The translations under genes were made by a program, and so were the position numbers. This document shows positions 10,017 through 11,207 of a stretch of DNA of 64,000 nt, piece after piece. The stretch is from Dehalococcoidia bacterium (GTDB lineage Bacteria; Chloroflexota; Dehalococcoidia; DSTF01; JACRBR01). The stretch's first letter is position 1. Each line of letters begins with the position of its first letter. The stretch spans positions 116,792 through 180,791 of the forward strand of contig JBBDXE010000008.1 of assembly GCA_040902505.1 (NCBI GenBank), in the 5' to 3' direction. Below the pieces are notes generated by a model. It saw nothing but the letters and a program-made list of their open reading frames with translations. It was not told where the DNA came from and ran no database searches.

Positions 10017-11207
10017 GTGAGCGACGACGCGCTGGCATCGCAGGCGCCGCGACAGGTTGATCCGTACAGGACTCTCGAGCTTCACCCGAAGGCTTCGAGA
10101 GAGCTTGTCACGCTGGCCTACTGGGCCCTCGTTGCGCACGCACGCGGTCAGGCGCACGGTGAGAAACGCATCGAGGACCTCAACGCCGCGTACGAGTTCC
10201 TGACCGACGAGGCGCGTCGCCGCGCTTACAACGCCCGGACCGGACTCCCCATGCCCGGCGCTCCCGTCCTTCAGCTCGAACGCCGCCACACTGGCCTTCT
10301 GGGCACCAGGACGCAGCTCCGCCTGAATGCCGTCGCTGACCACTACCACTTGCTGCGAGTGGATCCCGAGGCTTCGGACGCCGTCATCTACGCTGCCTAC
10401 GACACGCTCGTCCGAAGGAACCCCGAGGGCTCGGCCGAGGCCGCGATGGTCCGCCAGCTGCTGGATGAGGCCCGCCGCGTCCTCCTGAATCCGCAGCTGC
10501 GCGCCCGCTACGACGCTTCGCGCGGATCCGGCCCAGCCCCGAACACAGGCGTCCCGTCCCCCAAGCAACCGGTGCCCGCGCCGCCCGTGGCCACGCCCTC
10601 ACAGCCGCAGCCGTACCGCAACGGTTCCGCGCCTGCCGCTGGCCCCCCGTCTCGCAAGCGGCAACACACAAACGGCGTCGCGGCCGTATCGGCCAACGGC
10701 CATCGGGCCAACGACCGGAGCCACGCGCCGAAGGGGAAAGTGGCGATCATTGCCGCGGAGGGTGAGCGGTTGCTGTCGCTCCGGACGGACGAGGTGCTGG
10801 ACCTCGGGGCGAATGAAAACACCCGGGCGGCACCCCCGGCGCCCGCGGCGAAGCCCGCCTCCGCCGGGCCGCCGGACGCCGCCCTGATTACGCTCGCCGG
10901 TCCCCACGCCGGCGAGAAGATCGCGCTCGGCCTCGATCCTGTGGCGATTGGCCCGGGACGGAACGCGCGCATCGTTGTGCCCTCCGCCGAATCGAGGGCA
11001 GGCTCGGAATACGCTCGAGTCTGGAGGCGCGGCGATCGCGTTTTCCTGCGCCAGGCAGGCCAGAACGGCGTCAAGATCAACGGCCAACCGCTCGCTCTGC
11101 CCCTGGTGATCCTCGATGACGGCGACGAGATCGGGATCGCCGGCCAGGTGCTCCGATTCCAGATCGGCGCTGAGTCCGGCATCTCCCCGATGCCCCCGAA
11201 CCCTTGA
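10017..11207 (+). CDS. FHA-domain protein with two degenerate (HPD-less) J-like domains
   Basis: C-terminal FHA signature ..IGPGRNARIVVPSAESRAGSEYARVWRRGDRVFLRQAGQNGVKINGQPLALPLVILDDGDEIGIAGQVLRFQ. The N-terminal half holds two DnaJ-like helical repeats lacking HPD (DPYRTLELHPKASRELVTLAYWAL.., HYHLLRVDPEASDAVIYAAYDTLV..). GTG at 10017 starts immediately after the tadC stop. An alternative ATG at 9969 is in frame. Confidence 0.65.
   Translation: MSDDALASQAPRQVDPYRTLELHPKASRELVTLAYWALVAHARGQAHGEKRIEDLNAAYEFLTDEARRRAYNARTGLPMPGAPVLQLERRHTGLLGTRTQLRLNAVADHYHLLRVDPEASDAVIYAAYDTLVRRNPEGSAEAAMVRQLLDEARRVLLNPQLRARYDASRGSGPAPNTGVPSPKQPVPAPPVATPSQPQPYRNGSAPAAGPPSRKRQHTNGVAAVSANGHRANDRSHAPKGKVAIIAAEGERLLSLRTDEVLDLGANENTRAAPPAPAAKPASAGPPDAALITLAGPHAGEKIALGLDPVAIGPGRNARIVVPSAESRAGSEYARVWRRGDRVFLRQAGQNGVKINGQPLALPLVILDDGDEIGIAGQVLRFQIGAESGISPMPPNP

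Follow-up and report, generated by a model that had tools for sequence, protein, structure and literature searches.

A protein with two J-like modules and an FHA-fold domain encoded directly after tadC in Chloroflexota: conserved position, degenerate motifs and a putative accessory role at the Tad pilus machine

The gene at the end of the tad block

The sequence analysed here (the window) is a stretch of 64,000 nucleotides (nt) from a Dehalococcoidia bacterium of the Chloroflexota (contig JBBDXE010000008.1, positions 116,792 to 180,791), with a G+C content of 68%. Its plus strand carries a complete monoderm-type tad block, and the gene that ends this block, a single open reading frame (ORF) of 396 amino acids (aa), is the subject of this study. 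Because the predicted protein combines two modules resembling the J-domain of DnaJ with a C-terminal FHA fold, we refer to it as the J-J-FHA protein. We report that the gene lies directly downstream of tadC in every one of 13 distinct loci in which it was located, and that the signature motifs of both domain types are degenerate across the family. The gene and the parts of its product are as follows; confidence values are those of the predicted local distance difference test (pLDDT) of the AlphaFold2 model.

10017-11207, plus strand: J-J-FHA gene, 396 aa (Pfam; identity with deposited protein P0001)
10059-10244, plus strand: J-like module 1 (J1), aa 15-76, without the His-Pro-Asp (HPD) tripeptide; Pfam DnaJ match at aa 15-72; four helices, pLDDT 86-96
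10338-10526, plus strand: J-like module 2 (J2), aa 108-170, without HPD; Pfam DnaJ match at about aa 107-167; pLDDT 81-96
10527-10877, plus strand: disordered linker, aa 171-287 (117 aa), 37% Ala+Pro; pLDDT below 50
10755-10784, plus strand: linker motif A-E-x-x-R251-L-L-[S/T]-L-R, within a predicted amphipathic helix at aa 241-257
10878-11165, plus strand: FHA-fold domain, aa 288-383, its phospho-Thr site degenerate; pLDDT 88-95

A protein deposited from a Dehalococcoidia metagenome-assembled genome (MAG) as a hypothetical protein (P0001) is 100% identical over all 396 aa and begins at the same GTG, a start that also agrees with the family N-terminus MLxxQGxRPxDPY. An alternative in-frame start, TTG at 9969, was rejected: a gene beginning there would share 47 nt with tadC, and its product would have 16 extra residues found in no homologue. 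The tadC stop codon TGA (10013-10015) is followed by a single T at 10016 and then by the GTG (10017-10019). An earlier note on this DNA, made by a model from the letters alone, had described the GTG as the codon right after the tadC stop; the two genes do nearly abut, but a 1-nt spacer keeps them from adjoining directly. The final 20 nt of tadC hold no Shine-Dalgarno-like sequence ahead of this GTG, which makes translational coupling to tadC plausible. The G+C content at third codon positions (GC3) is 0.80 in the J-J-FHA gene versus 0.69-0.75 in the antisense ORFs. This value, together with homologues kept at 26-43% identity, argues that the gene is real and that the reverse-strand ORFs overlapping it are the usual artefacts of high-GC DNA. 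No transmembrane (TM) segment was detected in the protein (Kyte-Doolittle 19-mer maximum of 1.0), suggesting that it is cytoplasmic.

The upstream genes of the window supply flp, tadE, tadG, rcpC, tadZ, tadA, tadB and tadC. The block and the features at its 3' side are listed below, where the class of cpaF follows the scheme (I-III) defined in PMC12019362.

1980-2159, plus strand: flp pilin 1 (MGERGQDLVEYAVL...), from a sequence motif
2498-2701, plus strand: flp pilin 2 (MKTELVRRSEQGQDLVEYAVL...), from a sequence motif
2683-3267, plus strand: tadE-like pseudopilin (PF07811 in orthologous genes)
3248-4696, start approximate, plus strand: tadG-like large pseudopilin (PF13400 Tad matched by the L001 and L020 orthologues)
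4711-5529, plus strand: cpaB/rcpC (Pfam)
5573-6793, plus strand: cpaE/tadZ, a receiver-like domain and a ParA/MinD ATPase; GTG start with GGAGG before it
[quoted passage not shown]
8134-9102, plus strand: tadB (T2SSF; Pfam)
9113-10015, plus strand: tadC (T2SSF; Pfam), stop 1 nt before the J-J-FHA GTG
11235-11264: promoter-like site, a sigma-70-like match just upstream of the next ORF
11271-11432, plus strand: two-TM ORF of 53 aa with a GPGYYFL motif, conserved in related loci
11473-11850, plus strand: DUF192 protein (PF02643), conserved on the 3' side of the tad block

The earlier note had also placed the J-J-FHA gene outside the canonical tad set, and this holds: its Pfam and NCBIfam matches are of the DnaJ and FHA types only, with no homology to a named component (flp, tadV, rcpCAB, tadZABCDEFG). 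Published tad clusters of Chloroflexota comprise rcpC-tadZABC, tadEEG and flp only (PMC7332563; bioRxiv 2025.08.19.671072).

Domains and motifs of a Chloroflexota family

When 1.84 billion representative proteins were searched exhaustively with the profile, at least 132 clusters (50% identity) scored E<=1e-30; a word-indexed protein search returned few members only (7 and 14). The order J1-J2-FHA was found in 117 of the 154 top representatives, the latter being the listed matches of the exhaustive search plus those of the word-indexed search; minor architectures were J1-J2 only, J2-FHA and FHA only, some of which may be fragments. The median length in the family is 445 aa, and the named members are all from Chloroflexota MAGs (Dehalococcoidia, Chloroflexia or 'Chloroflexi'). 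Among homologues the J-J-FHA protein shares 26-43% identity, versus 58-79% for the listed TadC homologues, and by this measure it evolves much faster than TadC. In the ten longest relatives, inspected for Rosetta-stone fusions, the only domains seen were DnaJ, FHA or YscD-like domains and one DUF2206. Taken together, the search results point to a real, conserved family.

Two stretches of the window protein match Pfam DnaJ (PF00226) at E 1.3e-13 and 51.3 bits, above the gathering threshold of 27.8. The conserved pattern of J1 is DPYRTLQLHP...AYWAL...LNAAY...RRxYD, and the family keeps the residues of the J fold in helix I (Tyr/Leu), helix II (Ala-Tyr), helix III (Leu-Asn-x-Ala-Tyr) and helix IV (Arg-x-x-Tyr-Asp). 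At the place of HPD the window protein has AHARGQ (J1) and RRNPEG (J2). Across the 117 representatives the corresponding columns hold Q/R/K, A/R/Q/S and R/A/E/S in J1, and L/S/R, R/G/E and L/G/A in J2. The references for this alignment were E. coli DnaJ, human DNAJB1 and CbpA. Stray HPD strings in 12 sequences lie outside the HPD site, the one exception being P0112, a protein outside the family. Helix II of J1 carries a Trp (106/117) at the position of a DnaJ Lys. HPD is needed for stimulation of the Hsp70 ATPase. As both modules are without it, they are not expected to stimulate Hsp70 and would instead be J-like interaction modules. The earlier note had drawn the same picture of two HPD-less modules that cannot act on Hsp70 and look like interaction modules. 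The anatomy is borne out in the window protein and throughout the 117 representatives, and the functional part is upheld as an expectation from the loss of HPD.

Neither a Gly/Phe region nor a zinc finger is present in the J-J-FHA protein, and a C-terminal substrate-binding domain is likewise lacking; the NCBIfam models for DnaJ and CbpA reach 16-28 bits where 292-585 are required, with the J region alone being matched. Family members in JGI/IMG bear the name 'curved DNA-binding protein CbpA'; the window protein scores 18.9 bits with the NCBIfam CbpA model, whose cut-off is 403, and the name is, on this evidence, a misannotation driven by the J-domain. As a separate observation, the 679-aa protein P0112 contains six tandem J-domains, each with HPD (residues 45, 152, 259, 382, 505 and 628). 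This multi-J architecture is unusual, and the protein is unrelated to the J-J-FHA family, though it was matched in the exhaustive search.

The C-terminal domain had been called a clear FHA domain in the earlier note. The fold is confirmed by structure comparison, family profile and model alike, but not by the single-sequence Pfam score, which is sub-threshold for PF00498 (E 0.0042, 17.9 bits, gathering threshold 20.7). The AlphaFold2 model, computed with 15 homologous sequences, shows three confident domains, namely J1, J2 and a beta-sandwich. A Foldseek search of the PDB matched the GarA FHA at E 2e-7 with a target TM-score of 0.84-0.87, and GarA, OdhI and Ki67 together at E 2e-7 to 1e-6 and 0.81-0.87, as befits an eleven-stranded beta-sandwich. 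The family profile matched the GarA/OdhI FHA chains at E 1e-7 (GarA 1.2e-7). Relatives exceed the Pfam thresholds for FHA and for Yop-YscD_cpl (PF16697), the latter scoring above its gathering score in two relatives and reaching E 0.008 and 16.8 bits, against a cut-off of 33.2, in the window protein. Weak NCBIfam matches of the window protein were to FhaB/FipA (E 6.4e-5) and TagH (E 0.018). We therefore regard the predicted FHA fold as secure despite the sub-threshold Pfam score.

The residues of the phospho-Thr site were read from three alignments: a MAFFT alignment with references, the family hidden Markov model against references, and the family profile against the PDB GarA chains. All three agree. 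In the 117 representatives, the G-R of GarA aligns to G-[S43/A19/E15/G14/D10]; its S-R-R-H-A aligns to A-P-x-H-A, with A63/G13 at the Ser position; and the Asn of its N-G aligns to P/A/G (P36/A19). The His and the GDxIxIG core, both structural, are retained. As aligned, the family FHA is thus without the phospho-Thr pocket residues (GR Arg, SxxH Ser and NG Asn), and this loss suggests a docking role that is independent of phosphorylation. FHA-like domains of the YscD and EssC types serve as structural modules and do so independently of phosphorylation. The A-P-x-H variant is common to the family FHA and to YscD. The corresponding loops of the window protein are IGPGRNARIVV, AGSEYARVW and QNGVKING; NG alone is retained there, no canonical Arg or Ser is present and Tyr replaces His. 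An N-G-[T/V] element is kept by the window protein and by P0005.

Between J2 and the FHA domain the linker varies from 48 to 447 aa across the family, and its motif around R251 is the sole conserved element outside the folded domains. R251 is invariant, and L252 and L253 nearly so, in alignments A2 and A4; over the 117 sequences the top residue of the R251 column reaches about 90%. The Ser/Thr position of the motif holds Ser or Thr interchangeably, or neither. In the 15-sequence model there was no sign of the linker helix docking in cis, although the confidence of the domains rose. A second basic motif, RGLLxRLR, occurs in many homologues and is absent from the window protein.

Conserved position and possible role

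In all 13 distinct loci (the window, L001, L004, L005, L006, L008, L010, L011, L012, L020, L021, L025 and L026) the J-J-FHA gene lies directly 3' of tadC on the same strand, and it does so down to 26% protein identity. The annotated gaps between the two genes are 1-97 nt, mostly 1-31 nt. The upstream order cpaB-cpaE-cpaF-tadB-tadC is shared wherever the contig reaches, with flp-tadE-tadG before it on the longest contigs, and the genes flanking the tad block on the outside are different between loci. A profile scan of genome contigs with alignment A2 confirmed at least ten loci, and no family member away from a tad context was found among the loci examined. FHA-only partial matches (L014-L019) were set aside as generic FHA: L014, L015, L018 and L019 have no tad genes, and L016 and L017 have distant tadE/tadG-like matches only. 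The description of the gene as the last of the tad operon therefore stands, in that it is the final same-strand gene of the block and keeps this position in every locus; a comparison with relatives, which the earlier note had suggested as a check, yields conserved adjacency and co-orientation.

To counter the ascertainment bias of the loci above, we took five loci reached from TadC homologues (64-77% identity). Two of these hold the J-J-FHA gene (L025, L026), one an FHA-only gene (L024) and two nothing of the kind (L022, L023), so that approached from the TadC side three of five have a family member, and presence is patchy. The L024 gene (4900-5631) encodes a 243-aa J-less variant with a disordered N-terminus, a DRLRGLSE motif and an FHA domain, and it starts inside the tadC stop (overlap 4900/4903). 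Since this FHA-only variant keeps the linker motif right after tadC, FHA plus motif would be the conserved core, and the gene as such is, judging from these loci, common but dispensable. A separate peculiarity of L022 (1700-3029) and L023 (1694-3026) is that cpaF is split into two ORFs (251+190 aa and 228+231 aa, respectively), which may be due to locus decay or to an assembly frameshift or mis-assembly.

On balance we lean towards the view that the J-J-FHA protein scaffolds or regulates the Tad motor as a lineage-specific, cytoplasmic component acting independently of phosphorylation, and is not a kinase-controlled switch; its binding partners and its effect on the pilus are what we infer. 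The gene would share a transcript with tadC, probably with coupled translation, and its product would be a soluble cytoplasmic accessory component of the Chloroflexota Tad (Flp) pilus machine. The core would consist of the C-terminal FHA fold and the Arg-Leu-Leu linker motif, to which two J-like bundles have presumably been added N-terminally in most members. The FHA-like domain may serve for docking that does not depend on phosphorylation, as domains of the YscD/EscD type do, while the linker, its motif and the J-like bundles bind cytoplasmic partners, for which CpaF, the TadB/TadC platform and the ParA-like CpaE are candidates. Pilus assembly would thereby be scaffolded, localised or tuned, and the protein would correspond functionally, in trans, to the FHA-IDR that class III CpaF has in cis. 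Several observations weigh against this view. The linker helix remains of low confidence (pLDDT 42-48) after the 15-sequence AlphaFold2 run. The FHA domain of the window protein retains NG and has an Arg two residues off the canonical GR register, and this member may have some residual phosphopeptide binding. Moreover, L022 and L023 lack the J-J-FHA gene, so that at least some close relatives of the system can do without it, although the split cpaF of these two loci may point to decay or mis-assembly.

The earlier note had taken an FHA adaptor in a pilus operon to suggest Ser/Thr-kinase-dependent control of pilus assembly. The FHA domain would then read phospho-Thr on a Tad component or regulator, and a Hanks-type kinase would control the pilus, as in type VI secretion with Fha1/PpkA. 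The FHA fold is real, its nearest solved relatives (GarA, OdhI, FhaA and DgcB) are phospho-Thr readers, and the weak FhaB and TagH matches, the N-G-[T/V] of the window protein and P0005, and the signalling role proposed for the FHA proteins of Myxococcus Kil (PMC8460266) all accord with such control. Yet most of the 117 representatives have other residues in place of Arg, Ser and Asn, with the profile alignments in agreement, the Ser/Thr of the linker motif is interchangeable or missing, and no linked kinase or PP2C was found. A regular-expression search for the Hanks catalytic-loop motif in all frames of the 64-kb window gave no match, and Pfam detected neither Pkinase nor PP2C in the 20 larger window genes or in the gene tables of the related loci (+/-10 kb or +/-4 kb). 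The sole kinase-like domain found in the window belongs to an ABC1/UbiB atypical kinase-like protein (PF03109, E 3e-77; 31403-32803, plus strand), which is not Hanks-type. We accordingly set this proposal aside as unlikely, although it could still hold for individual members. Another reading is that the protein is simply a fast-evolving neighbour of tadC with no pilus function. The gap between its identity values and those of TadC, and its absence from two of the five TadC-anchored loci, would fit; position and strand, however, are fixed in 13/13 loci even at 26% identity while the outer flanks differ, the gaps are short, the L024 variant overlaps the tadC stop, and no member was found in any other context, which together make a mere neighbour very improbable.

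Peptides at the N-terminus of MinE and ParB act on MinD and ParA. By analogy, the Arg-bearing linker peptides (ExxRLLxLR and RGLLxRLR) could engage CpaE (TadZ) in the same manner, while FHA and J-like modules tether the protein to the machine or a cellular landmark, and so set the position or timing of Tad. In favour of a CpaE partner are the standing of the linker motif as the sole conserved non-domain element with its nearly invariant R251, the retention of a motif in the J-less L024 variant, a receiver-ParA CpaE encoded in every locus, and the septum-adjacent pili of filamentous Chloroflexota, which would call for a positioning system (PMC7332563). The proposal agrees with the anatomy. It is purely analogical, however, the RGLLxRLR motif is missing from the window protein, and CpaE is retained in L022 and L023 where the J-J-FHA gene is not; we consider it decidedly unlikely. 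The same holds for its fuller version, a long shot by analogy, in which the family would be the missing TadZ/CpaE partner of monoderm-type Tad, regulating the ATPase in a MinE/ParB-like way with anchoring to the motor or a septal landmark, and hence a new positioning and timing module of type IVc. It is scarcely credible, finally, that the protein is a true Hsp70 co-chaperone recruiting DnaK to fold or assemble Tad components. The above-threshold Pfam DnaJ match and the IMG 'CbpA' label on members would be in line with a co-chaperone, but HPD is missing from both modules in essentially all 117 representatives, helix II has a conserved Trp where DnaJ has Lys, none of the three further DnaJ regions is present and the NCBIfam DnaJ equivalogs score 16-28 bits against more than 290.

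A link between FHA domains and Tad systems is not new as such, because it is known from Kil and from class III CpaF. FHA proteins are over-represented in the Tad-like Kil system of Myxococcus (PMC8460266), and class III CpaF proteins, for example Achromobacter E3HIW0, have an N-terminal FHA-IDR extension; full pilus dynamics depend on the IDR in class II CpaF, and a role in protein contacts was suggested for it (PMC12019362). Our literature search on Chloroflexota tad or pili with FHA or DnaJ, and on J-like modules combined with FHA, found no report, and the J-J-FHA architecture appears undescribed, as do the degeneracy of its motifs and the constant position behind tadC in Chloroflexota. By analogy, the closest functional counterpart is the FHA-IDR fused to class III CpaF. 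Both place an FHA domain and a disordered tether on the cytoplasmic side of Tad, and the CpaF of the window has no such extension; the J-J-FHA protein differs in being a separate polypeptide with its FHA at the C-terminus, two J-like modules and degenerate phospho-Thr residues (the FHA domains were likened by description). The M. xanthus Kil cluster, also compared by description, likewise contains stand-alone FHA proteins. Kil differs in being predatory and diderm, in having a secretin and a KilF with a fused FHA, and in the signalling function proposed; J-like modules have not been reported from it.

YscD/EscD/PrgH (PF16697; PDB 4a0e, 4d9v) share with our protein an FHA fold without phospho-Thr residues that serves structural docking, the A-P-x-H variant and a Foldseek match at E 2e-5, but these are bitopic inner-membrane ring proteins in which the FHA-like domain is N-terminal and a TM helix and periplasmic domains that build the ring come after it, unlike the J-J-FHA protein with its C-terminal FHA and no TM segment. 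The actinobacterial GarA/OdhI, FhaA and FhaB are the best FHA matches in sequence and structure, yet they are canonical phospho-Thr readers with GR/SRxH/NG intact, and metabolic or cell-wall regulators not linked to pili. ArnA of the Sulfolobus archaellum (PDB 5a8i; Foldseek rank 37) resembles our protein in pairing a small N-terminal module with an FHA that regulates a Tad-related type IV filament machine, although that module is a zinc finger instead. ArnA acts with kinases and ArnB in a phosphorylation-dependent manner. For the J-like modules, Pam16/Tim16, chloroplast NdhU and mitoribosomal mL77 offer examples of an HPD-less J fold as a structural or binding module, NdhU and mL77 chains being among the family profile matches, but they belong to unrelated complexes with no FHA and no pilus link.

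Tad pili are the sole pilus system in many Chloroflexota and the suspected motor of gliding and aggregation, and the Tad genes of this phylum have so far been catalogued only via homology to proteobacterial models. A fast-evolving cytoplasmic protein tied to tadC is therefore a candidate for scaffolding, positioning or switching monoderm-type machines, and as a trans-acting counterpart it could be used to probe the function of the class III CpaF FHA-IDR. The family also suggests that J-domain and FHA can both outlast the loss of their signature motifs as pure interaction modules. With members labelled 'CbpA' or 'hypothetical', it calls for caution in automatic annotation.

Other features of the loci

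The receiver domain of the window CpaE/TadZ (5573-6793) contains ...RPDIVLVGVGEP..., with a Gly at the expected phospho-acceptor Asp (by eye only), and looks like the atypical, non-phosphorylatable receiver of TadZ. On the minus strand, a gene for a GGDEF diguanylate-cyclase-type protein (11951-13114) converges on the tad block. It was not seen at the equivalent position in related loci and probably lies outside the conserved module; it could provide a link to cyclic di-GMP for the window locus alone.

A small ORF of 50-68 aa with two predicted TM helices and the motif GPGY[YF]F follows the J-J-FHA gene, or tadC where that gene is absent. Besides the window, it lies at these positions:

L001: 11520-11681
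L004: 2151-2324
L008: 3109-3315
L022: 5255-5416
L023: 5177-5341
L024: 5683-5835

The gene tables give it no Pfam annotation, and it may be a small membrane component of Tad at these loci that has so far escaped recognition. DUF192 genes recur 3' of the tad block in the window, L001, L005, L008, L010 (two copies), L011, L013, L020-L023, L025 and L026, and hence even in loci without a J-J-FHA gene. Adjacency of DUF192 and Tad genes has also been noted in Bulleidia and Helcococcus (PMC12786226); DUF192 may therefore accompany monoderm Tad systems as a general accessory.

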